Positions 4,901 to 60,547 of a DNA stretch of 64,000 nt are shown one piece after another. Where the stretch lies: NCBI GenBank assembly GCA_029936515.1, contig JAPYSK010000001.1, positions 14,079 through 78,078 of the forward strand. The letters are read 5' to 3'. Each line of letters opens with the position of its first letter. Within the stretch, counting starts at the first letter, position 1. Source of the stretch: Candidatus Thioglobus sp. Lineage in GTDB: Bacteria; Pseudomonadota; Gammaproteobacteria; PS1; Pseudothioglobaceae. Under the pieces are notes generated by a model. That model was not told where the DNA came from, did no database searches, and saw only the letters and a program-made list of their open reading frames with translations. Made by a program: the position numbers and the translations under genes.

Positions 4901-6193
4901 TTAATTACTAAACACTTTAACTAATCCAGCAGCTTTATGCTTAGTTTCAGCTAGTTCTTTGTCTGGTATTGAGTCGTATACAATTCCGGCACCTGCCCGA
5001 AAAGTTAATGTATTTTCCTGATGAATAAAGCTACGAATGAGGATGTTAAAGTCCATTTTTCCATTTTGGCTTAAATACCCTACTGATCCTGTATATGCTG
5101 ACCTTGGCATCTGTTCTAGTTCGCTAATTATTTGCATACAGCGTACCTTGGGACAGCCAGTGATTGTTCCTCCAGGAAAGAGAGCTCTAACAATTTCACT
5201 TACACCTACATTTTTTCTTAGTTTACCTTTGATATTTGACACTATATGATGCACATAAGGATAAGTTTCTAGTGTCATAACCTCGTTAACAAAGACACTG
5301 CCATATTCACATACCCTGCCCATATCATTTCTTTCCAGATCAAGAAGCATTACATGTTCAGCTATTTCTTTTGGATGACTTATTAGATTCTCCTTTTGAG
5401 TGTCATCTTCAGAGCCTTTTCCTCGAGGATGTGTGCCCGCAATAGGTCTTGTTTGTAAGACGCCATCATTGACACTAAAAAGCCTTTCTGGAGAAGATGA
5501 AATTATGCTGAAATTTTCATACTGAATTAGCGCGGAAAAAGGAGCTGGATTAGCATTTTTTAAGGCGGAATAGATTATTGTTGAATTTATTTTTTCACTA
5601 AGTTTATATTGCCATTGTCTCGATAGGTTGACCTGAAAAACGTCACCCGAAACAATATAATCTAAGCAGGCCTTTACTCCATCGGTAAATTTTTCTTGGT
5701 TTTCTTCTGATAACTTTCCTTTTATGGATTTTTCAGGTATCGGTTTGGTAAGTTTAATATCTGATAATATTAAATTAATGCGATCTTCATTGTCATCTTG
5801 ATCAATAAGATATGTCTTATCTAGCTGATGATCGATAATGATAGCAGAGGGTATTTTTACTGCATAAGCAATTGGAAGATTAGATCTATAAACCTCGTAA
5901 GATAAGGAGGGCTCAATTTGTTCTATTAATTCATACGAGAGATAGACAAACCACCCACCAATAAACGGCAGATCAGAATTTAAATTATTTGGTTTAAGTT
6001 GATTTTTAAGCTCATTTAAAAAATCAAAGTCAGAAAAGCTATTAAGAATAATACTTTCACCAGGAAAAGCAAACAATATAGAGTATCTATTGAAGTCGTT
6101 ATGATTTACACTTTCAAGTAAAAAAGGATATCTCTCACTATTTAGATAACAAAAAGAAGCTAAATCAACTTTTTGTATTTCTAGAATTTTCAC
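4901..6193 (-). CDS. pabB: Aminodeoxychorismate synthase component I (chorismate-binding PabB/TrpE family)
   Basis: GDVFQVNLSR, TRPIAGTHPRG, EHVMLLDLERNDMGRVC, FPGGTITGCPKVR, RAGAGIVYDS; the PGGTITG variant and short length fit PabB-like better than TrpE. Confidence 0.75.
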   Translation of the reverse strand: MKILEIQKVDLASFCYLNSERYPFLLESVNHNDFNRYSILFAFPGESIILNSFSDFDFLNELKNQLKPNNLNSDLPFIGGWFVYLSYELIEQIEPSLSYEVYRSNLPIAYAVKIPSAIIIDHQLDKTYLIDQDDNEDRINLILSDIKLTKPIPEKSIKGKLSEENQEKFTDGVKACLDYIVSGDVFQVNLSRQWQYKLSEKINSTIIYSALKNANPAPFSALIQYENFSIISSSPERLFSVNDGVLQTRPIAGTHPRGKGSEDDTQKENLISHPKEIAEHVMLLDLERNDMGRVCEYGSVFVNEVMTLETYPYVHHIVSNIKGKLRKNVGVSEIVRALFPGGTITGCPKVRCMQIISELEQMPRSAYTGSVGYLSQNGKMDFNILIRSFIHQENTLTFRAGAGIVYDSIPDKELAETKHKAAGLVKVFSN

Positions 6194-6197
6194 TTAT

Positions 6198-6851
6198 TTA
6201 AAGATCTTCTAGTAATTGAATAGCTTTTTTAATTAGAGTATGTTCTGGATACTCTTCAATCATCTTTGATAATAATAGTTTTGCTTCATTAATTTCTTTA
6301 AACTCAATAAGGACTTGTGACAATTCATATAAAGAGTCAGCATATTTTGGGTGATTGGTGTGACTAGATTGAAAGTCTAGATAGGATTTTTTAGAATCTA
6401 TGTATGCTTCACTTCGAGAGTAAGCCCTGCCGAGCCATAATTTTGAATCTGCTACGTTTTCTAAGTCTGGAAAATTCTCCAAGTAGCTTATGAATAACTC
6501 TATAGCTTTTTTATAGTCTCCAAGTACAAATTGACTTTTTCCATCAGAATATAGTTTGAATGCATTTTTTTCTATATCTGTTTTAAGTATTGCTTCTTCT
6601 TTTTTGTTTTCAATAGAGTTTAATTCGATTATTTCAAACAATTTAGCTATTTTTTCAGAATTTAGCCTTTGTGCCTCCTTAAGAAGTTCATTCTCTTCTT
6701 TTAGAGATAAAATCTCGTTATTGAGGGATTTGACTTCTTTATTAATTTTAAAGAATGCCATTTCAAAGTCGAAACCTTCATCTGCATTTATTTCAAGCAC
6801 AGTAAACATGCAGAATATTGATAAAATAAATTTAAGCAGAGTCTTTTTCAT
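6198..6851 (-). CDS. cpoB: Tol-Pal TPR protein CpoB (YbgF)
   Basis: Signal peptide, coiled coil, TPR repeats (YKKAIELFISYLENFP, LWLGRAY, HPKYADSLYEL); directly downstream of pal. Confidence 0.85.
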   Translation of the reverse strand: MKKTLLKFILSIFCMFTVLEINADEGFDFEMAFFKINKEVKSLNNEILSLKEENELLKEAQRLNSEKIAKLFEIIELNSIENKKEEAILKTDIEKNAFKLYSDGKSQFVLGDYKKAIELFISYLENFPDLENVADSKLWLGRAYSRSEAYIDSKKSYLDFQSSHTNHPKYADSLYELSQVLIEFKEINEAKLLLSKMIEEYPEHTLIKKAIQLLEDL

Positions 6852-6899
6852 CAGACGAAACAGCTTATTAATAAAAAAAGAATTTAACGCAATTTATCT

Positions 6900-7892
6900 C
6901 TAGTAATAAGAGAATTCTACTCGACGATTCTTTTCCCAGGCTTCTTCGTTGCTACCAGTTAAGATAGGTTGTTCTTCTCCATAACTTACTACTACAATCC
7001 TATCTTCAAGATTGTAAAGCCCTAAAACTTCTTTAACGTTAAGTGCGCGATTTTCACCAAGTGCTAGATTATATTCACGAGTACCCCTTTCATCTGCGTG
7101 TCCCTCTAATCGAAGGTTAAAAGATGGGTTGCTTTGCATAAAATTAGCATGTTCAATAATTATTCTGGTTGCTACCTCGTTTATTTCAGAGTCGTCATAA
7201 GAAAAATAAAGAGTGGACGTAATTCCAGCATTCTCAAGTAGCAAAGCAGCTAACTTAGTTTCCTCAGCACCCTCTCGTAGGGCTTCTATGACTTCATCTT
7301 TATTTTGAATATTACCGTCTTCGTCTAAAATTATTAGATTATCTGTTAGTGCTTCAACCACTTCATTTCTATTTTGAAGGTTACCATCAGCATCTAGAAC
7401 TAAAGTATCTTCCATACCTTTTTCTTTTGCTATCTCGATTAACTCATCGTTAGATAACGACTTAAGTTCTCCTGAAACTACAACACTATCCATTCCTTTC
7501 TCTTCAGCTCTTTCAATTAGAGCATCGTTTGATAATGATTGAAGTTCCTGAGTGGCATTGTCTAATAAAGCTTCAGCTTCAAGGAGCGCCTTTATTATTT
7601 CATCTCTGTTCTGAAGATTTCCATCAGCGTCAATCTTTAGCATGTCTTCCAAGCCTTTTTCTTTAGCAATTTCAATAAGCTCATCATTACTCAAAACTTC
7701 TAACTCTTCAAATGTAAAGCCATCACTATCATCGTACGCAACAAAAATTTCCTCACTTAGGTCAGTGACCTCTGTTGGGGTATCAGATGGGTTAATTAGA
7801 TCTAGAAACTTATCACCTAGTTCAGAAATGCTTGTAGCAGCACAAGAACTTAAAAAAATTACACTTGATAGTAATAGAATTTTTTTTGACAT
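6900..7892 (-). CDS. pal: Peptidoglycan-associated lipoprotein Pal with a long internal acidic repeat insertion
   Basis: Lipobox LSSC; C-terminal OmpA-like domain EGHADERGTREYNLALGENRA, SYGEEQP, KNRRVE. Start moved to ATG 7892 (AAGGA RBS, after the tolB stop). Confidence 0.9.
   Translation of the reverse strand: MSKKILLLSSVIFLSSCAATSISELGDKFLDLINPSDTPTEVTDLSEEIFVAYDDSDGFTFEELEVLSNDELIEIAKEKGLEDMLKIDADGNLQNRDEIIKALLEAEALLDNATQELQSLSNDALIERAEEKGMDSVVVSGELKSLSNDELIEIAKEKGMEDTLVLDADGNLQNRNEVVEALTDNLIILDEDGNIQNKDEVIEALREGAEETKLAALLLENAGITSTLYFSYDDSEINEVATRIIIEHANFMQSNPSFNLRLEGHADERGTREYNLALGENRALNVKEVLGLYNLEDRIVVVSYGEEQPILTGSNEEAWEKNRRVEFSYY
7272..7706 (-). repeat. Intragenic modular repeats in pal (LSNDELIEIAKEKG x3, LDADGNLQNRDEVIEAL x3)
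   Basis: Visible in the translation, approximately residues 87-231 of the ORF-track protein. Confidence 0.9.
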
Positions 7893-50800: not shown

Positions 50801-51763
50801 CTATTTACATTGATTAGCTGTAATTACCACTGTATTAACGATCTCATCGACGCTACATCCTCGTGATAAATCATTAACTGGCTTTGCAAGCCCCTGAAGG
50901 ATTGGTCCAATTGCTTTTGCACCAGAAAATCGCTGAACAAGTTTGTAGCCAATATTAGCTGCATCTAGGTTAGGAAAAATCAATACATTTGCAGGTGGAA
51001 CAAAAGCAGTTTCTGGATATTTAATCTTTAATACGTCTTTATCCAAAGCAGCATCAAGCTGTATATTACCAACAATATCAATGTTTGGCAGTCTAGATTT
51101 AAGGATATCAGTTGCAAGCCTTACTTTGTCAACTTGTAGGTGTTTAGCGCTTTGATTTGTAGAAAATGAAAGCATAGCTATTTTTGGCTCACTTTCAAGT
51201 AAAGATTGGGCTGTTTTAAATGCGCTATGTGCAATTTCAGCTAACTCTTCAGAACTAGGGTCTATATTCATAGCGCAGTCTGAAAAGATCATATTCTCAC
51301 CATATATTTGATGATTTTGATCAAATACCATTAGGAATAAACTTGATACAAGCTTACTGTCATTAGAGACACCTATAATTCGTAGAGCATTACTTAATAC
51401 TTCCTGGCTTGGTGTAATGGCACCTGTAACAACGCCATCCACATCGCCTCTATATAGAGCAACCATTGCAAATACACTTGGGTTTGAAACTAGCTCTAAA
51501 GCTTCATTAAGATCAATACCCTTATGCTTTCTTCTTTCATAAAAAGTTTTGGCATACTCCAGCTTCAAATCTTCATCTTCAGGATTAATGAATTCAATGC
51601 CATGAGTTGTGTCAGTTTTTGCGTCAAGTAAAACGATTTTGGCAATTTTTTGGTTTGCAAGAAGCTTAGCCGCCTCTAGAACGCGAGCATCATTAGATTC
51701 GGGCAATAAAATACGTGGATATCTGACTTTTGCTCTATTCGTTAAATCTTCTACTAACGCCAT
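50801..51763 (-). CDS. pta: Phosphate acetyltransferase (short form)
   Basis: ILLPESNDARV, FSDCAMNIDP, AMLSFST, QLDAAL, FPNLDAANIGYK, GPILQGLAKPVNDLSRG. Confidence 0.93.
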   Translation of the reverse strand: MALVEDLTNRAKVRYPRILLPESNDARVLEAAKLLANQKIAKIVLLDAKTDTTHGIEFINPEDEDLKLEYAKTFYERRKHKGIDLNEALELVSNPSVFAMVALYRGDVDGVVTGAITPSQEVLSNALRIIGVSNDSKLVSSLFLMVFDQNHQIYGENMIFSDCAMNIDPSSEELAEIAHSAFKTAQSLLESEPKIAMLSFSTNQSAKHLQVDKVRLATDILKSRLPNIDIVGNIQLDAALDKDVLKIKYPETAFVPPANVLIFPNLDAANIGYKLVQRFSGAKAIGPILQGLAKPVNDLSRGCSVDEIVNTVVITANQCK

Positions 51764-51886
51764 TATTATGCCTCAAATAAACAAGATGATAGTTTACCCG
51801 AAAATATCAGTAATTCTATATACCCTTCTGCTGCTATAACTAAAGTTTAGGTTTATTACCAAAAATATTTTAAAGGCTTTAAATAA

Positions 51887-51902
51887 ACTCATATATATGA
51901 GT
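51887..51902. promoter_or_regulatory. 16-bp perfect palindrome (candidate operator)
   Basis: ACTCATATATATGAGT, 40 bp upstream of the GntR-aldolase GTG start, in the divergent pta intergenic region. Confidence 0.55.
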
Positions 51903-51942
51903 ATACTGAGACAATTGTCCTTATAAAATAGCTTTCATACAC

Positions 51943-52890
51943 GTGAATAAGAAGCTTTATCAAACTGTTATAGACTATATCAATAATAAAATCACTAGTG
52001 GAGAGCTATCAATTGGTGATGTTATTCCTTCTGAATCTCAACTTTCAAAGCGATTAAATGTGAGTATTGGAACTGTCAGAAAAGCCATCGATAAGCTTGA
52101 AAATAGTAATATACTTTTTCGTCATCATGGTAAAGGAACATATGTAAACTTAAACTTAAAAACTATGAAAACTGACTATAAAAAAGAGCGCTCTGACCTT
52201 GCCGCTGCTTTTAGGTGGGCCGCAAGACTTAATATGCATGAAGCTGTTGCAAATCACTTCAGCTTGGCAGTTTCAGATGATGGCTCACAATTCCTATTAA
52301 ATCCTATCGGGATGAATTTTTCTCAGATTTGTGCAAGTGACCTTATTCTTCTAGATTCTAATGACCCAACAACAATGTCACAACCCAATGCCCCTGATCC
52401 TTCAGCTTGGGCTATACACGGGGCAATGCATAGAAATAATCCTCAAGCCAGATGTATTCTTCATGTCCATCCTAAATATGCAACCATTCTCGCCAGTCTT
52501 GAAGATAAGACCATGAAGCCTATCGATCAAAACACAATGCGCTTTTATGAAAAGGTATCAATTGATCATGACTATAGCGGTATGGGTCTTGGCAAAGAGG
52601 CTGAGAGATTAAGCACTATCTTGGGTGATAATTCTGTTCTGTTGATGGGTAATCATGGAGTTCTGACCGCTGCTAAGACGGTAGCCAAAGCGTTTGACGA
52701 CCTTTATTACTTTGAACGCTCCTGTGAAAATTTAATTGGGGCTTATCAAACTGGTAAAAACTTACACTTAGTAAGTCATGAGATTGCTACAAAAACGGCT
52801 CAGCAATGGCAAGACTATGACGCCTCAGACCTTCACTTTGATGCATTAAAAAGAATCTTGGACAAGGAAGAGCCTGACTACAAAATTTAG
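51943..52890 (+). CDS. GntR winged-HTH fused to a class II aldolase/adducin domain
   Basis: Residues 1-68 GntR (IPSESQLSKRLNVSIGTVRKAIDKL...GKGTYV); residues 75-315 aldolase II (NHFS, ILHVHP, GNHGV zinc ligands). Confidence 0.88.
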   Translation: MNKKLYQTVIDYINNKITSGELSIGDVIPSESQLSKRLNVSIGTVRKAIDKLENSNILFRHHGKGTYVNLNLKTMKTDYKKERSDLAAAFRWAARLNMHEAVANHFSLAVSDDGSQFLLNPIGMNFSQICASDLILLDSNDPTTMSQPNAPDPSAWAIHGAMHRNNPQARCILHVHPKYATILASLEDKTMKPIDQNTMRFYEKVSIDHDYSGMGLGKEAERLSTILGDNSVLLMGNHGVLTAAKTVAKAFDDLYYFERSCENLIGAYQTGKNLHLVSHEIATKTAQQWQDYDASDLHFDALKRILDKEEPDYKI

Positions 52891-52928: not shown

Positions 52929-54176
52929 ATGTCAAACAACAATGTCTCATTAGACGTGAACTATGTAAAAGCGCAATTTCCAGCCTTTAATGACCCCTTA
53001 AGTGCCAAATGGTCTTTTTTTGAAAATGCCGGTGGAAGTTACGTTCCTAATAACGTCATCGAGCGTTTAAATTATTTTATGACCTCAACAAAGGTTCAGC
53101 CTTATGCCGAGTTTGATACCTCTGCAATTGCTGGAGATAATATGGATCAAGCAACTAATTTGTTTGCTGAAATGATTAATGTACAGAATGATGAAATCAT
53201 TATTGGAGGCTCTACAACGATAAATATGTACGTATTGTCTAATGCAATGAGAAGTCTTTTAAAGCCAGGTGATGAAGTAATTGTTACCAATCAAGACCAT
53301 GAAGCTAATGTTGGAGCATGGCGAAGGCTCGCCGAGCACGGTATGGTTATCAAGGAATGGAAAATCAATACAAAAACTGCTGAACTTGAGATTGAAGATT
53401 TAAAATCTTTATTGTCAGAAAAAACTAAAATTGTCGCGGTCACTCATTGCTCTAACATTGTGGGTTCAATAAATGACCTTAAATCCATTGCAAAACTGGT
53501 TCATGAGTATGACGCTTATATTATTGGTGATGGTGTCTCTTATGCACCCCATGGATTTCCTGATGTAAAAGACCTTGATGTTGATTTTTACGCATTTAGC
53601 CTCTATAAGACTTACGGCCCCCACTTAGGTCTTCTTTATGGGAAAAAAGCGATTCTAGACAAACTACCGAATCAAAATCATGAATTTCTAGAGGGAGATG
53701 TCCCCTACACTCTTAATCCAGGCGGCCCAAATCATGAAGAGTTGTCCTGTTTAATTGGCGTATATGAGTATTTTAATAACTTATTTGAGCATCACTTTCC
53801 AGGAGAGGATGGCTCTGTTAGAGACAAAATTGAAAAAATTAATGAATTGATTGCAAAGCATGAACAAGAAATAGCAAACCCCCTTCTCGAATATATAAGC
53901 TCTCGAGATGACATTAAACTTATCGGAAAAAACAAAATAGAGAATAAAAATAGAGCGCCAACGATTGCCTTTACTATGGACAATAAGTCATCAAAGGAGC
54001 TCAGTAGTGATCTTGTTAAACATGGCATTGCAACAAGGAATGACAACTTCTATGCATGGCGATGCTTAAAGGCTTTAGGAATAGATGTTGATGATGGTGT
54101 TGTAAGAACAAGTATGGTTCACTACAATACTCATGAAGATGTAAATAATCTAATCGAAGCCCTAAAGAAGATTTAA
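52929..54176 (+). CDS. Class V PLP-dependent enzyme (cysteine desulfurase-like, no catalytic Cys)
   Basis: FENAGGS, DHEAN, VTHCSNIVG, DGVSYAPH, FSLYKTYGPHLG (PLP Lys). Confidence 0.85.
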   Translation: MSNNNVSLDVNYVKAQFPAFNDPLSAKWSFFENAGGSYVPNNVIERLNYFMTSTKVQPYAEFDTSAIAGDNMDQATNLFAEMINVQNDEIIIGGSTTINMYVLSNAMRSLLKPGDEVIVTNQDHEANVGAWRRLAEHGMVIKEWKINTKTAELEIEDLKSLLSEKTKIVAVTHCSNIVGSINDLKSIAKLVHEYDAYIIGDGVSYAPHGFPDVKDLDVDFYAFSLYKTYGPHLGLLYGKKAILDKLPNQNHEFLEGDVPYTLNPGGPNHEELSCLIGVYEYFNNLFEHHFPGEDGSVRDKIEKINELIAKHEQEIANPLLEYISSRDDIKLIGKNKIENKNRAPTIAFTMDNKSSKELSSDLVKHGIATRNDNFYAWRCLKALGIDVDDGVVRTSMVHYNTHEDVNNLIEALKKI

Positions 54177-54202: not shown

Positions 54203-55027
54203 TCAAAGTTTTTTATACAAGGTAGGAAACATTTTTCCAGATAAATCGTCACCATTTTGGTAACCATTTGCCTCCATTATTGCCCTTTCATCTTGGGCCC
54301 AATCACCTCGATACTCAACCCTAGAACCTTCTTTTGCCATTCTCAGAGTATATCGATGAATATCTTTTTTTGGAGTAACTTCATTCAAGCTTCCGTGCAA
54401 AGTTCGCATATCAAAAAAGACACAATCACCCAATTCAAGGTCCCACTGTAGAAATTCATAGTTGTCCTTATTTTCAAGTATATCTGGCGTTATATCGTAT
54501 GTCTTTCCATTCACCTCGCCGGCTTCTCCATCAATTGGATGTCCTTCTTGAAATCGTGTTCTTATATAAAGCTTATTCCAGAGATGGGAGCCCTTAATCC
54601 AAGCTATTCCCTCTTCTTTTGAGACAGGCTCGAGAGGGAGCCAGAGAACACACATAGTTCCTTCAAAATCAAAGTATGAGATGTCGTGATGAAAAGGAGC
54701 GCCTGATTTAGACCCTGACTCTCTATAAAACCAATTATCCATGACTAAATTAATTTTTTTAGCCTCTAAAAGCTCTGAGGCAATTTGAGCAGTAGGTGAA
54801 TTAAAAACAAAGTCTTTAAAGTCTTTATATAGATCCCATATCCAAAAATCTTCGAAGTAACCAGGTGCATCTTTATCCTTTGTATGTCTTACAAACCGTG
54901 GACTAGGATTATTTATATCCTCATTAATGCCATTTCTAAGCTTTTCAATCCATTGCTTTTCAAACTTACCTTTTATTAAAACAGCACCATCCTTATTAAA
55001 TTGATTAATTTCAGCTTGAGATAGCAT
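54203..55027 (-). CDS. PhyH-family Fe(II)/2OG dioxygenase
   Basis: PFHHDISY (HxD), LWLPLEPV, KGSHLW, RTLHGS, RYTLR. Confidence 0.85.
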   Translation of the reverse strand: MLSQAEINQFNKDGAVLIKGKFEKQWIEKLRNGINEDINNPSPRFVRHTKDKDAPGYFEDFWIWDLYKDFKDFVFNSPTAQIASELLEAKKINLVMDNWFYRESGSKSGAPFHHDISYFDFEGTMCVLWLPLEPVSKEEGIAWIKGSHLWNKLYIRTRFQEGHPIDGEAGEVNGKTYDITPDILENKDNYEFLQWDLELGDCVFFDMRTLHGSLNEVTPKKDIHRYTLRMAKEGSRVEYRGDWAQDERAIMEANGYQNGDDLSGKMFPTLYKKL

Positions 55028-55107: not shown

Positions 55108-55299
55108 TTAGATAGCGCAGCTCATATCTTGGCCACAACAACTAGGTGATTTAATTTTTCCGTGACCATTTGGACATTTTGAAATTTGAACTTCTGTTCC
55201 ATCATCAAGCGTAAGCATGCCGTCTACTAGAGGTTCATCACATTTAGCGCAAGTTGCGTTAACAGCCATTCCACAATTATCACATTCATATGTTGCCAT
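55108..55299 (-). CDS. Small Cys-rich putative metal-binding protein
   Basis: 63 aa with CxxC, CxxC, CxxxH and CC; GGAG RBS upstream. Confidence 0.75.
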   Translation of the reverse strand: MATYECDNCGMAVNATCAKCDEPLVDGMLTLDDGTEVQISKCPNGHGKIKSPSCCGQDMSCAI

Positions 55300-56091: not shown

Positions 56092-57165
56092 ATGATTAGA
56101 AATAAATTGATACTTATGATGGTAGCAACACTACTCGTTTTTAGTGGTTCGAGTTCAATTGCTGCAGATGAAAAAGTCATCAAGTGGAAACTGGCGATGA
56201 CATGGCCTGCTGGCTTACCACCTTTCGCATGGACTGTTACACGTTTTGCTGACAATGTAGAGGCGATGAGTGGTGGTCGAATGACAATTCGTGTTGATGA
56301 TAAAAATAAACACAAAGCTGCCTTGGGCATACTTGATATGGTCAAAGCTGGTCAGTATGAGATGGGTCATTCAGCCTCTTACTATTGGAAAGGCAAGGAC
56401 ATTAATACTATGCCATTTACAACTATGCCTTTCGGTATGACAACATCTGAGCAAGACGCTTGGTACTTCTATGGTGGTGGTGAAGCACTCGCAAAAGAAG
56501 TGTTTGACAAACATGGAGTTAACCAGTATCAAGGTGGTAGTACAGGTAATCAGATGGGTGGATGGTTCCGTAAAGAAATCAATTCTGTTGACGACCTTAA
56601 AGGTCTGAAGATGCGAATTCCTGGTTTTGCCGGAGAAGTTTTGGCTGAACTTGGTGTTGCGGTAACTAACCTGCCTGCGGGTGAGTTATATACAGCACTA
56701 GAGCGTGGAACGATTGATGCGCTTGAGTGGGTTGGTCCAGGTATGGATATTAATATGGGCTTTCATAAGGTTGCACCATATTACTATACTGGTTGGCATG
56801 AGCCTGCAACAGACTTGCAGTTCTTAATCAACCAAGATGCTTGGAATGAGTTACCGGCTGATTTACAGGCTATTATCGAGGTAGCTATGGTTGATTCCAA
56901 GGCGCGTATGTATTGGGAAAACTTTGCCATGAGTGCCGAAGCTTGGTCTAAGATGGGAGTGGATTACCCTAACATTAAAGTTAGGACATTCCCTCCAGAA
57001 GTAATTGCTGAGATGAAGGCTGTTAATGCTCGACTTATCGCTGAAACTTCTGCAAGAGATCCTATGTTCAAAAAGATTATGGAATCTCAAGCGGAATTTA
57101 TGGCGAAGGCTCGAGAATGGACAAAGATGTCAGATTATTTGTACTTGAAAGACAATATCGAATAA
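56092..57165 (+). CDS. dctP: TRAP transporter substrate-binding protein (DctP family, TakP-like)
   Basis: KWKLAMTWP, GHSASYYWKGK, QMGGWFRKEI, LKMRIPG, ALERGTIDALEWVGP; GGAG RBS. Confidence 0.9.
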   Translation: MIRNKLILMMVATLLVFSGSSSIAADEKVIKWKLAMTWPAGLPPFAWTVTRFADNVEAMSGGRMTIRVDDKNKHKAALGILDMVKAGQYEMGHSASYYWKGKDINTMPFTTMPFGMTTSEQDAWYFYGGGEALAKEVFDKHGVNQYQGGSTGNQMGGWFRKEINSVDDLKGLKMRIPGFAGEVLAELGVAVTNLPAGELYTALERGTIDALEWVGPGMDINMGFHKVAPYYYTGWHEPATDLQFLINQDAWNELPADLQAIIEVAMVDSKARMYWENFAMSAEAWSKMGVDYPNIKVRTFPPEVIAEMKAVNARLIAETSARDPMFKKIMESQAEFMAKAREWTKMSDYLYLKDNIE

Positions 57166-57186
57166 TTTAAATCTTATGTGTTTTAT

Positions 57187-57217
57187 AATGCCCGCTATAA
57201 ACGCGGGCATTTTTTTT
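57187..57217 (+). terminator. Intrinsic terminator/attenuating hairpin after dctP
   Basis: AATGCCCGC/GCGGGCATT stem followed by a T-run. Confidence 0.85.
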
Positions 57218-57236
57218 ATTTTTACAGGCTAATGTA

Positions 57237-57752
57237 ATGCAATGGATTGAATCATTTTGCGATAAATTTTCTAAATACTTAGGTATCGTTATTGCGTTTT
57301 TGCTCATCATAATGATGATCAATGTTGCTTTCGATGCCTTGAATCGTTACCTAATGAACTCTAATTCAGTTGCTTTGCAAGAGATGGAGTGGCACCTATT
57401 CTCGGTAATTATATTGTTGGGATTATCTTATACACTGAATCAAGAGGGTCACGTACGTGTTGATGTTTTGTATACAAATTTTAGTGCAAAAAAGAAAGCC
57501 ATCATCAATATGATTGGTGTCATTACATTTGTTCTACCACTTAGCCTATTAGTAGCATTCGGCTCACTTGGCTTTGTTGCAGAGGCCTACAATTTTATGG
57601 AGCAGAGTGGAGATCCAGGCGGACTGCACTATCGTTTTATTATCAAGGGTTTAATTCCAACAGCGTTTTTTATTTTAATATTCATGTCAATTGGTTATTT
57701 TGCGCGTAACTATAACCTCTTAAAACGACTCAACTCAAGTTCAGACTCATGA
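57237..57752 (+). CDS. dctQ: TRAP small permease DctQ
   Basis: 4 TM; EMEWHLF, GHVRVDVLY. Confidence 0.92.
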   Translation: MQWIESFCDKFSKYLGIVIAFLLIIMMINVAFDALNRYLMNSNSVALQEMEWHLFSVIILLGLSYTLNQEGHVRVDVLYTNFSAKKKAIINMIGVITFVLPLSLLVAFGSLGFVAEAYNFMEQSGDPGGLHYRFIIKGLIPTAFFILIFMSIGYFARNYNLLKRLNSSSDS

Positions 57753-59098
57753 TAGGTTTAATAATGTTTTTTACTGGTCTAGGAATGCTATTTATTGGCT
57801 TTCCTGTTGCGTTTACTTTTGGAGCAGTATCGGTATTCTTTGGTATGGCTGCTGGCATCATTGAAGCTTTTAGTGATGGCGAGCTATTGGTTGACGGTAT
57901 AGATAATGGTTTGATGATGTTTGCGATGATGCCTCATCGTATTTGGAGCATTATGAATAACACCATTTTAATGGCAATTCCTTTGTTTATATTAATGGGC
58001 TTGATCCTGCAAAAAACTAAATTAGCAGAACGCCTACTTGAATCTATGGGTTATCTATTTGGTGAAATTAGAGGCGGCTTAGCAATCAGTACCGTTTTAG
58101 TCGGCTCTTTATTAGCAGCATCTACAGGGGTAGTTGGTGCCAGTGTTGTAGCTATGGGCGTTATTTCTTTGCCCGTTATGTTGAAGTATAACTATTCAAA
58201 AGGATTAGCTACTGGAACCATATGTGCAGCAGGAACCTTGGGTCAAATCATACCACCTTCTATTGTTCTTATTATATTGGGAGACGTCTTTAATGTGCCT
58301 GTTGGAGACCTCTTTAAAGCTGCACTTTTTCCTGGTCTAGTTCTGGTTGCAGCCTATACAGTCTATATTTTGATAGCAGCCTATTTGAATCCCCAGATCG
58401 GACCAGCAGTTAGAATTGAAAGGCAAGAAGGCGAAAGTAAAAAAAGCCAAGTCATTTCAGCATTATTTTCAATTATTCCGCCTTTGTCATTAATTGTTGT
58501 TGTTCTAGGTTCTATTTTTGCAGGCATTGCAACCCCTACAGAATCATCCGCTATTGGCTGTGTTGGTGCCGTAATACTAGCACTCTTATATAGAAAATTT
58601 TCCTTTTCAATGTTGATGGAATCTTCCATGGAAACGGTGAAAATAACGGCAATGGTTTTTGGCATTTTGATTGGTGCAACTGCATTTTCTATGGTCTTCA
58701 CCTATACCGGGGGTGACTTATTAATTGAGAACTTTATGCTCAGCTTGCCGGGTGATAAATGGGGCTTTATTATAATTGCAATGCTCGTTATTATGATCTT
58801 AGGATTTTTTATAGACTTTGTTGAAATTTCTTATATTATTGTTCCAATTTTGGTACCAATTTCAGATGCTATAGGCATTAACCCTATCTGGTTTGCCATT
58901 CTAATCGCTATGAATCTGCAAACTTCATTTTTAACGCCACCGTTTGGGTTCAGCTTGTTTTATTTGAAAGGGGTTGCTCCTAGCAACATAAAAACGACAG
59001 ATATTTATAAAGGCGTTATACCTTTTATATTAATACAGGTACTTGTATTAGCTTCTATTGTCTTTTATCCAGAATGGTATGGCACTTTTCAATATTAA
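57749..59098 (+). CDS. dctM: TRAP large permease DctM
   Basis: LMAIPLFILMG, AASTGVVGASV, GTLGQIIPPS, QTSFLTPPFG. Confidence 0.93.
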   Translation: MIGLIMFFTGLGMLFIGFPVAFTFGAVSVFFGMAAGIIEAFSDGELLVDGIDNGLMMFAMMPHRIWSIMNNTILMAIPLFILMGLILQKTKLAERLLESMGYLFGEIRGGLAISTVLVGSLLAASTGVVGASVVAMGVISLPVMLKYNYSKGLATGTICAAGTLGQIIPPSIVLIILGDVFNVPVGDLFKAALFPGLVLVAAYTVYILIAAYLNPQIGPAVRIERQEGESKKSQVISALFSIIPPLSLIVVVLGSIFAGIATPTESSAIGCVGAVILALLYRKFSFSMLMESSMETVKITAMVFGILIGATAFSMVFTYTGGDLLIENFMLSLPGDKWGFIIIAMLVIMILGFFIDFVEISYIIVPILVPISDAIGINPIWFAILIAMNLQTSFLTPPFGFSLFYLKGVAPSNIKTTDIYKGVIPFILIQVLVLASIVFYPEWYGTFQY

Positions 59099-59164
59099 AT
59101 ATATATCGCAAACGGATTAGTACTAAAAGAAGACCTTATTGATTAAAAACTTGGAGAATTCACT

Positions 59165-60547
59165 ATGGACGTTAAAACCAAAACAACTTGGCAACAAGAT
59201 AAAGATCATTTTATTCATCCATGGACCGACTTTTCAACCTTTAAAGATGAAGGTTCGCTGGTTCTGACTGACGGTTCTGGAATAACCCTGACTGATAGCG
59301 AAGGACGACAGTTTATGGATGGCATAGGAGGTCTTTGGTGTGTAAATATCGGCTATGGTCGAGAAGAGATGGCAGATGCTATTGCCGAGCAAGCGCGGCG
59401 TATTCCTTATTTTTCTACCTTTGGACATCACACCACACCTCCAGCTGCAGCTTTAGCTGCAAAACTTGCAGAATTAGCACCAGGAAATTTAAATCATGTG
59501 TTTTATGGTTGTGGGGGTTCTGTAGCTAACGATACGGCTGTTCGCATTATTCACTTTTATTTTAATCAATTGGGGCAAAAAACTAAGAAGAAAATTATCA
59601 GTCGAATTGATGGTTACCACGGTAGCACCTATATGGCAATGTCAATTACTGGTGTTGAGTTTGATCATGTTGGTTTTGATGTTGACAATCAAATGGTTCA
59701 TCACATAAGTTGTCCGAACCCCTATCGACGTCCTGATGATATGAGTTTAGAGAATTTTTGTGACTCTAAAGTGCAAGAGTTGGAGGACAAAATATTAGAG
59801 CTTGGTGCCGATAATATTGCCGCTTTTTTTGCTGAACCAATACTGGGTGCCGGCGGTGTTATTGTACCGCCACCTGGCTATCACCGCAAAACCCAAGAGG
59901 TTTGTAATAAATATAATGTTCTTTATGTTTCTGATGAAGTGGTTACAGGCTTTGGTCGATTGGGCCATATGTTTGCCTCTAAAGACGAGTTTGATTTACA
60001 ACCAGATATCATTACTTGCGCTAAAGGCTTAACCTCCGGGTATCTACCACTAAGCGCAACAATACTATCAGACGATATTTATGATGTTATTAGTATCCCC
60101 CAGGCCAAAGGTGCTTTATTTACTCACGGCTTCACTTATTCTGGTCATCCTGTTTGCTGTGCGGCGGGGTTAAAGAATATTGAAATTATTGAAAGAGAGA
60201 ATCTGTGTGAACATGTAAACGATGTGGGTGATTACTTTGAGAGGCAACTAAAAACTCTAGAAGACCTCGATATTGTCGGCGAGGTACGTGGTAGAAAATT
60301 TATGATGTGCATTGAAAATGTTGCTGATAAACAAACAAAAGAGCTTCTTCATGAAGATGGTGAAGTTGGCACACGTATCGCCAACCACTGTCAAAATCGT
60401 GGTCTCATAGTTAGGCCTTTAGCGCATATGAATGTATTATCTCCTCCACTCGTGATGACACGAAAAGAGGTTGATAAAATGGTAAACATTTTGCGAGAAA
60501 GTATCATTGAAACAATTAGCGATTTATCGAATGACGGCTATTTATAA
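59165..60547 (+). CDS. Class III (omega-amine:pyruvate) aminotransferase, HinC-like
   Basis: GGLWCVNIGYG, GYHGST, FAEPILGAGG, DEVVTGFGR, TCAKGLTSGY, HGFTYSGHP. Confidence 0.9.
   Translation: MDVKTKTTWQQDKDHFIHPWTDFSTFKDEGSLVLTDGSGITLTDSEGRQFMDGIGGLWCVNIGYGREEMADAIAEQARRIPYFSTFGHHTTPPAAALAAKLAELAPGNLNHVFYGCGGSVANDTAVRIIHFYFNQLGQKTKKKIISRIDGYHGSTYMAMSITGVEFDHVGFDVDNQMVHHISCPNPYRRPDDMSLENFCDSKVQELEDKILELGADNIAAFFAEPILGAGGVIVPPPGYHRKTQEVCNKYNVLYVSDEVVTGFGRLGHMFASKDEFDLQPDIITCAKGLTSGYLPLSATILSDDIYDVISIPQAKGALFTHGFTYSGHPVCCAAGLKNIEIIERENLCEHVNDVGDYFERQLKTLEDLDIVGEVRGRKFMMCIENVADKQTKELLHEDGEVGTRIANHCQNRGLIVRPLAHMNVLSPPLVMTRKEVDKMVNILRESIIETISDLSNDGYL

Follow-up and report, generated by a model that had tools for sequence, protein, structure and literature searches.

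The fused gene

We analyzed a stretch of 64,000 nucleotides (nt) of Candidatus Thioglobus sp. (contig JAPYSK010000001.1; hereafter the window), in which one open reading frame (ORF) joins the winged helix-turn-helix (wHTH; HTH for the helix-turn-helix domain) of a GntR regulator to a complete enzyme of the class II aldolase/adducin fold, followed by a gene for a class V pyridoxal phosphate (PLP) enzyme. The fused gene is divided as follows, in window coordinates:

51943..52890, plus strand: fused gene, GntR wHTH plus linker plus class II aldolase/adducin-fold enzyme, 315 amino acids (aa), GTG start
51943..52146, plus strand: winged helix-turn-helix, codons 1-68, derived from a HutC-type GntR repressor, with 80% identity to the regulator of the related locus L008
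52147..52164, plus strand: linker NLNLKT (AAC TTA AAC TTA AAA ACT), codons 69-74, a translated leftover of the old intergenic spacer and the scar of a deletion of ~0.55 kb
52165..52890, plus strand: full-length PRK07490-type class II aldolase/adducin-fold enzyme, codons 75-315, recognized by Pfam, NCBIfam and its three-His site

The initial annotation, made from the letters of the DNA, had described a complete GntR DNA-binding domain at the N terminus, then the NLNLKT linker and an intact aldolase II domain starting at Met75 without a ribosome-binding site of its own. The profile matches agree. Pfam GntR (PF00392) covers residues 5-68 with 64.7 bits (cut-off 27) over profile positions 1-64 of 64, and Aldolase_II (PF00596) covers residues 85-263 with 144.6 bits (cut-off 22.2), while the NCBIfam equivalog PRK07490 spans residues 75-314 with 366.4 bits (cut-off 260) over profile positions 7-247 of 248. 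The codon for Met75 lies at 52165, with no Shine-Dalgarno motif ahead of it; at the start of the whole ORF, ATG replaces GTG in relatives. No match to UTRA (PF07702), the effector domain of HutC regulators, was found in the 315-aa protein, nor any UTRA-like sequence within the 64-kb window. The Pfam family Aminotran_1_2 likewise gave no match in the protein, and MocR-type models (PdxR, EhuR) were matched by the HTH part alone, at residues 3-83 and far under their cut-offs. In an AlphaFold2 model of the 315-aa protein (mean predicted local distance difference test, pLDDT, 90.3), two confident domains, the wHTH being folded as three helices and a beta hairpin, are separated by a low-confidence linker at residues 69-79, with pLDDT <50 at residues 73-76. 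The linker is thus predicted to be unstructured over ~11 residues.

The metal site of the enzyme domain, formed by three histidines (H174, H176 and H238), is invariant in an alignment of 78 sequences. The nearest relatives by sequence and fold are 3OCR (template modeling score about 0.83), a structure without an assigned function, NovR, TqaM, pyruvic oxime dioxygenase, the HMPDdc decarboxylase and adducin heads. FucA-type aldolases are distant (14-19% identity). The domain had been called Zn-dependent; the three-His metal site is indeed intact, but zinc itself is not established: among solved structures the domain lies closest to non-haem, Fe(II) oxygenases and to decarboxylases, and not to sugar-phosphate aldolases.

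The fused arrangement is neither an artefact nor very recent. Contigs from 4 unrelated metagenome runs cross the junction with 0 gaps, no indel and no joint; the stop or frameshift at this point against which the initial annotation had cautioned is absent from them. The identical 315-aa protein, together with 18 more clusters of 315-aa fused proteins at 76-86% identity, is present in ENA, JGI, Logan and NCBI data, and the fused ORF comes from at least 11 independent sources, among them a complete genome (NZ_CP159805.1, 86% identity). All 21 of 21 fused proteins align without gaps and have the same length. Metatranscriptome contigs are sparse, and a single 151-nt record (52059-52209, 0 mismatches, depth 2) also spans the junction, which is weak evidence. 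An assembly or frameshift artefact is therefore ruled out by the multiple database sources and the gap-free junction contigs. We could likewise reject the idea that the 241-aa relatives found in databases are alternative gene calls on a fused ORF, as in their DNA a full regulator ends in a stop codon and is followed by a spacer, or else the regulator is missing. For the broader view that misassembly, a frameshift in sequencing or decay of the regulator has left an artefact or a pseudogene, we found no supporting point, and against it stand the 4 independent assemblies with 0 junction gaps, the number of independent sources (at least 11, including the complete genome) and the purifying selection on both domains described below; its probability is practically negligible.

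Translation of the hybrid as such can be judged from residue 75. Of the 21 fused sequences, 15 have M at this position, while N, V and I are found in 2 each, with the non-ATG codons AAT, GTT, GTC and ATT. Codon 75 is therefore not ATG in several lineages, in which the enzyme can be produced only as a fusion, and translation mainly from Met75, a second reservation of the initial annotation, is impossible where the codon is AAT, GTT or GTC. As read from these codons, the loss of Met75 in several lineages shows the hybrid to be the translated form.

Relatives and origin by two deletions

The nearest genomes, the complete NZ_CP159805.1 among them, belong to Candidatus Pseudothioglobus (Thioglobaceae, SUP05/ARCTIC96BD-19 group). 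Three states of the aldolase are found in close relatives: fused, split with a regulator, and without a regulator.

Fused: window, L007, L013, L028, L093, L094, L096 (7 loci)
Split, with a separate 240-aa GntR regulator (HTH plus UTRA) and a spacer of ~49 nt: L008/L097, L014-L017, L021, L024, L025, and, listed with them, L005, L006, L022 and L052, whose left side is truncated
Regulator-less, beside betB/betA/OYE-type genes or choline sulfatase: L001-L004, L009-L012, L018, L019, L023, L026

The comparison of split and fused relatives had been proposed in the initial annotation, and both forms exist between the same flanks, with ETF-QO and pta on the left, and the class V PLP enzyme and PhyH on the right. 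In the split form, the aldolase is a separate 241-aa protein. The 240-aa split regulator aligns end to end with Bacillus subtilis YvoA/NagR (2WV0, E=8e-13), and by this full-length alignment it is therefore a protein of the HutC subfamily. Window residues 1-69 are 80% identical (55/69) to the same residues of the 240-aa regulator of L008. Judged by sequence, the 315-aa protein is a HutC regulator by descent, and no longer one by architecture.

The left flank distinguishes the two states, with pta in 7/7 fused loci and tctA in 8/8 split loci that have left-flank sequence. We extended the split locus L097 to 10 kb, where the order is ETF-alpha, ETF-QO, pta (minus strand), a gene for a 969-aa protein (minus strand), tctC, tctB and tctA (minus strand), regulator, aldolase and class V enzyme; from this gene order, both flanks of the window locus are orthologous to it. 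In the split locus, pta is on the minus strand, downstream of tctCBA-sauST. At L097:634-2075, ETF-QO was called as a 157-aa C-terminal fragment alone, with ~1 kb uncalled before it, possibly a disrupted gene or an assembly problem. The corresponding neighbors in the window are these:

50801..51763, minus strand: pta (phosphotransacetylase), divergent left neighbor in all fused loci
51764..51886, no strand: composite intergenic region, mark of a deletion of ~6 kb, with the pta-proximal part joined to the regulator-proximal promoter
52929..54176, plus strand: class V PLP enzyme (VC1184-like, "cysteine desulfurase-like"), second operon gene

The fused gene had been said to head an operon with the class V PLP enzyme, in keeping with the 38-nt gap between them, the AAGGAG before the next ATG and the lack of any terminator-like site. 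This VC1184-like gene is the conserved partner of the enzyme domain, and, with the exception of the L009-L012 group, it lies 3' of the aldolase in all related Thioglobaceae loci that extend far enough.

Comparison of these loci shows the following ancestral order, which sister Pseudothioglobus genomes have kept: ETF-QO; pta, SauS-SauT and tctCBA, these being encoded on the minus strand; three operators; the HutC-type GntR regulator (HTH plus UTRA, 240 aa); a 49-nt spacer; the aldolase (241 aa); and the class V PLP enzyme. The linker DNA of the window, TTA AAC TTA AAA ACT ATG, corresponds to the end of the split-form spacer before the aldolase ATG, (G)TTA AAC TTA TCA ACT ATG; that is, the linker is the final 15-18 nt of that spacer. 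From this homology it follows that ~0.55 kb was deleted, with loss of UTRA together with its stop codon and of most of the spacer with the GAGG in it, and that regulator codon 68 was joined in frame to a point 15-21 nt before the enzyme ATG. A second deletion, of ~6 kb, is shown by the same loci to have removed tctCBA, the SauS-SauT gene and two distal operators in the fused lineage. The region between pta and the fused gene in the window measures 179 nt and is composite: its pta-proximal motif ATAGTTTACCCGAAAAT (51789-51805) has a counterpart in L097 between pta and the 969-aa SauS-SauT gene, the operator belongs to its regulator-proximal part, and in L097 the sauST gene, tctCBA and two distal operators intervene between the ATAGTTTACCCGAAAAT-type motif and the regulator.

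The 969-aa protein (L097:3123-6032, minus strand), absent from the window, consists of an N-terminal half matching SauS, the acylating sulfoacetaldehyde dehydrogenase (703 bits, equivalog cut-off 600), and a C-terminal half that is an AMP-forming CoA ligase (SauT-like). It thus carries two consecutive enzymes of the sulfoacetate pathway on one polypeptide, next to tctCBA and pta. The published degradation route for sulfoacetate runs through SauT, SauS and a tripartite tricarboxylate (TTT) transporter, then Xsc and Pta, and a TctC-type protein binds sulfoacetate (PMC10413351). On account of this SauS/SauT/tct content and the published route, the lost island was most likely a module for sulfoacetate uptake and activation, with the ancestral regulator as its repressor.

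Taken together, an origin of the hybrid by deletion and fusion appears almost certain from these alignments. The initial annotation had offered, as one of two options, a recent deletion-fusion that removed the effector domain. The deletion is shown by the syntenic split relatives, but "recent" does not hold in the sense of a fresh lesion, given a clade that has diverged (HTH dS 0.6-2.2), a frame and a linker length that are constant, and an HTH under purifying selection. The other option, a new GntR variant, is a possible functional outcome of the deletion and not its alternative.

The trees of the two domains differ. The fused HTHs other than that of the window form a clade with 88-91% bootstrap, whereas in the aldolase tree the fused forms are not monophyletic and are mixed with split forms. 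The fused L013 and the split L015 share 88-98% DNA identity from the aldolase onward, versus a dS of about 1.5 in the HTH, and the right side of the window is closest to the split L014. Such fused and split alleles pair up in otherwise very similar genomes (L013 versus L015/L016; window versus L014), with strongly different HTH regions. These pairs indicate either recombination with its breakpoint close to the junction or a polymorphism that has persisted for long. Because junction position, linker length and pta left flank are identical in all fused loci, we read the pattern as probably one fusion event, with homologous exchange near the junction among co-occurring lineages then producing the mixed trees. 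Independent fusions in each lineage, first suggested by the aldolase tree, are unlikely given the identical junction, linker length and pta flank.

Selection, operator and possible functions

Rates of nonsynonymous versus synonymous substitution (dN/dS) were estimated by the pairwise Nei-Gojobori method; dS is near saturation in many pairs, and the ratios are therefore rough. In fused genes, the HTH has a dN/dS of 0.055-0.20 at dS 0.6-2.2, with nonsynonymous changes rarer than synonymous ones (Fisher p 1e-5 to 1e-14), the 11-residue linker is near neutral at about 0.5-2, and the enzyme domain lies at 0.02-0.09. The corresponding values for the HTH of split-form regulators are 0.02-0.08. By these estimates, constraint on the fused HTH is relaxed and clearly present, and every part of the hybrid except the linker is under purifying selection. 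The constraint is not evenly spread: 9/34 columns vary in helices 2 and 3 and the wing, versus 21/33 elsewhere in the DNA-binding domain (Fisher p=0.003). In the linker, 7/7 columns vary while the length is constant.

In NagR, DNA is contacted by R38, R48 and G69, the two arginines reading guanine, and E61 (position 61) can be cross-linked to the effector domain (PMC4333415). The equivalent positions in our proteins are S32, I/V42 and G63, the same in split and fused forms, and the absence of the guanine-reading arginines fits an operator with an AT-only core. Substitutions specific to the fused forms cluster at residues 16, 56 and 59, of which 56 and 59 flank the equivalent of E61, as expected because UTRA is gone.

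The candidate control elements upstream of the fused gene are the following:

51887..51902, no strand: perfect 16-bp palindrome ACTCATATATATGAGT, candidate operator for the HTH, one site in the window
51878..51907, plus strand: sigma-70-like promoter match (TTTAAA, 18 nt, TATACT) on consensus alone, with spacer and -10 overlapping the palindrome

The palindrome had been noticed in the initial annotation and is unique: no further copy of ACTCATATATATGAGT that would define a regulon was found in the 64-kb window with 3 mismatches allowed. A ACTCATATATATGAGT-type site (<=3 mismatches) precedes the regulator in 12/12 loci with an HTH, whether fused or split, and precedes the aldolase in 0/7 regulator-less loci. 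Split forms have a tandem operator-like pair 22 bp apart near tctA, to which L014 adds a third, regulator-proximal site, and every fused locus has a single operator-like site at -50 to -56. The -10-like TGAGTATACT is kept in all fused loci and in the split-form L014. An opposite-strand promoter-like match (TTTATA, 16 nt, TATACT, 51927-51900) also overlaps the palindrome and points at pta, which has been divergent to the fused control region since the 6-kb deletion and may thus have come under control of the hybrid.

We weighed a model of the hybrid as a bifunctional enzyme-repressor. The enzyme domain, whose fold family has oligomeric solved members, would replace UTRA and pair two wHTH domains on the palindrome ACTCATATATATGAGT; bound there, the hybrid would cover the -10 of its own promoter and possibly the divergent pta promoter, with autogenous negative control of the enzyme/PLP-enzyme operon as the result, and the enzyme domain might perhaps act as a sensing module, in which a bound ligand or metal would modulate DNA binding. 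Isolated NagR DNA-binding domains bind palindromic DNA unaided (PMC4333415), and therefore any dimerizing partner should restore avidity. Retained operator binding by the hybrid seems to us slightly better than an even bet, and we lean, with modest confidence, toward the statement as a whole, that is, an origin in two deletions and a bifunctional enzyme-repressor acting on its own operator. Several observations weigh against it. Selection on the HTH is 2-4 times more relaxed in fused than in split forms, and residue 59, always Y in the split regulators, has become F, H, R, L or S in the fused proteins. In 6/7 fused loci the left half-site departs from the palindrome by one mismatch (ACACAT), and the L007 operator (L007:5950-5967, ACACATATATATATGAGT) has 2 extra bp, altering its half-site spacing; the conservation of TGAGTATACT could be due solely to the -10 element. 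With a linker of ~11 residues, two HTHs may not reach one palindrome, depending on how the oligomer places the N termini. Finally, monophyly of the fused HTHs including the window has a bootstrap of 46-50%, versus 88-91% without it. The near-identical L096, unlike L007, keeps the normal half-site spacing.

The main rival to an enzyme-repressor is a folded passenger that is inert toward DNA: the HTH would no longer bind, and would be kept because the enzyme relies for its expression on what the regulator supplied (promoter, ribosome-binding region, start codon), the sole effect of selection being a folded and harmless extension. The deletion did take the enzyme's own upstream GAGG and spacer, and with Met75 lost in some lineages the extension is obligatory there; the HTH dN/dS above that of split forms, the changes at residues 56 and 59, beside the equivalent of NagR residue 61 with its contact to the effector domain, and an operator half-site that is degenerate in most fused loci, with altered spacing in L007 as well, all fit. 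However, constraint is concentrated on the DNA-facing helices 2 and 3 and the wing rather than even, the left half of the palindrome lies outside the -10 and is yet kept in 7/7 fused loci, and genome streamlining should have shortened an extension that was nothing but a leader, whereas length is constant in 21/21 sequences. We consider this rival somewhat unlikely. A further alternative applies to the lineage of the window, where most of the enzyme would be free aldolase started internally at Met75, with the full-length fusion as a minor regulatory species. The ATG at 52165 stands in an A-rich, probably unstructured context, the split relatives L015-L017 likewise have no obvious Shine-Dalgarno motif before the aldolase ATG, and Met75 is kept in 15/21 fused sequences; but no Shine-Dalgarno motif precedes Met75, and lineages with N, V or I at this position manage without it, so that we judge two products unlikely.

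Conversely, the hybrid could be purely a regulator, its aldolase-fold domain now a noncatalytic ligand sensor in the manner of MocR. MocR and AraR are precedents within the GntR family, and the architecture fits their pattern of a wHTH plus an enzyme fold. Nevertheless, constraint on the enzyme domain (dN/dS 0.03-0.09) equals that on free-standing orthologues, all positions invariant across the 78 homologues are kept, the three-His site included, the PRK07490 score exceeds the NCBIfam equivalog cut-off, the conserved partner gene is retained, and a pattern-based scan retrieved no second aldolase copy from the fused complete genome NZ_CP159805.1. A pure regulator is on this evidence very unlikely. 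As an extension of the enzyme-repressor model, the deletion may have produced a true trigger enzyme and with it a nascent GntR subfamily: the aldolase-fold oligomer would place two wHTH domains on the operator, and occupancy of the active site by substrate, product or metal would alter their geometry, so that the enzyme would sense its substrate and set its own synthesis; we offer this extension as possible and tentative.

Metabolic surroundings and comparison with known systems

To the left of the aldolase/class V PLP pair, gene content is hypervariable in Thioglobaceae (L001-L004, L009-L012, L018, L023, L026). Among regulator-less loci this flank holds betaine-aldehyde dehydrogenase, choline dehydrogenase and an OYE/Pyr_redox enzyme in some lineages, and choline sulfatase in another. 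Farther away, a 58%-identical orthologue in Pseudomonas putida PSE9 (L050, 1-8726) is found among an OpuAC-type binding protein, an aldehyde dehydrogenase, an AraC-type regulator, a GMC oxidoreductase and a Rieske oxygenase, surroundings that by analogy resemble a quaternary-amine catabolic cluster. The neighboring genes thus suggest catabolism of choline-O-sulfate, betaine, quaternary amines or sulfonates. Gene context as a means of naming the substrate is suggestive only, and we assign none.

To the right of the operon in the window lie a PhyH-family dioxygenase (54203-55027, minus strand) and, adjoining it at 55108-55299 (minus strand), a 63-aa cysteine-rich, zinc-ribbon-like protein with no family match, which nearly all related loci share at 84-90% identity. 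In L019 the PhyH-family gene is present twice in tandem (6045-7742), the copies being 80% and 60% identical to the single one of the window, at a place occupied by one gene elsewhere. Further along (56092-60547, plus strand), a TRAP transporter (DctP/Q/M-like) is followed by a class III omega-aminotransferase (PRK07036, 747 bits) and a flavin oxidoreductase; these genes may be another module for uptake and deamination of an amine or sulfonate.

An aldolase II C-terminal domain had been said not to correspond to a known GntR subfamily. Consistent with this, no other GntR-aldolase II fusion was present among the best 150 representatives of 1.84 billion proteins, none of ten N-terminally extended relatives has an HTH, no PDB chain covering both domains was found, and our literature search returned no published case. 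Swaps of the C-terminal domain define the GntR subfamilies (FadR, HutC, MocR, AraR, YtrA), with origins that are ancient and opaque. Here, the states before and after coexist in closely related and abundant marine bacteria, the deletion scars can still be read, and both states are open to experiment. If the hybrid does bind its operator, a DNA-binding head could be reused with an unrelated oligomeric enzyme as scaffold, a natural minimal experiment, and the locus would show how an inducible repressor becomes an autogenous enzyme-repressor upon loss of the pathway for its transported substrate during genome streamlining. If it were a trigger enzyme, we would be seeing the birth of a MocR-like regulator family, caught in the act in abundant, genome-streamlined ocean bacteria. 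Without DNA binding, the hybrid would still be a clean case of an enzyme capturing the expression signals of a regulator. Either way, PRK07490-type enzymes and their class V PLP partner are flagged for organosulfonate or quaternary-amine metabolism in the SUP05/ARCTIC96BD-19 group.

HutC regulators, such as NagR/YvoA of B. subtilis and DasR of Streptomyces coelicolor, are dimers on palindromic operators from which a small-molecule effector releases them. The hybrid shares with them a wHTH orthologous to the HutC-type regulator of its sister genomes and a candidate palindromic operator in the promoter region; unlike them, it lacks the UTRA domain (chorismate-lyase fold), which serves as both effector and dimerization domain, and has S and I/V in place of the guanine-reading R38 and R48 of NagR. 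With MocR regulators (GabR, PdxR; a wHTH plus a fold-type I aminotransferase-like domain) it has in common the linkage of a wHTH to an enzyme-fold domain. The MocR enzyme-fold domain oligomerizes and binds a small molecule or cofactor, and it senses rather than catalyzes. The fold in the hybrid is instead class II aldolase/adducin, metal-dependent and not PLP-dependent, joined by a far shorter linker (~11 residues); its enzyme domain is a full, conserved orthologue of a free-standing enzyme, and its origin is a traceable recent deletion and not an ancient family. In comparison with PRK07490/3OCR-type proteins, it has the full-length match above the equivalog cut-off, the three-His site and the same fold, and differs in carrying 74 N-terminal residues of wHTH and linker. 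Trigger enzymes and enzyme-repressors (PutA, BirA, NadR) likewise place a DNA-binding domain and an enzyme of the controlled pathway on one polypeptide, with the autogenous control proposed here for the hybrid; what sets the hybrid apart from them is its pairing of a GntR wHTH with an aldolase II-fold protein.

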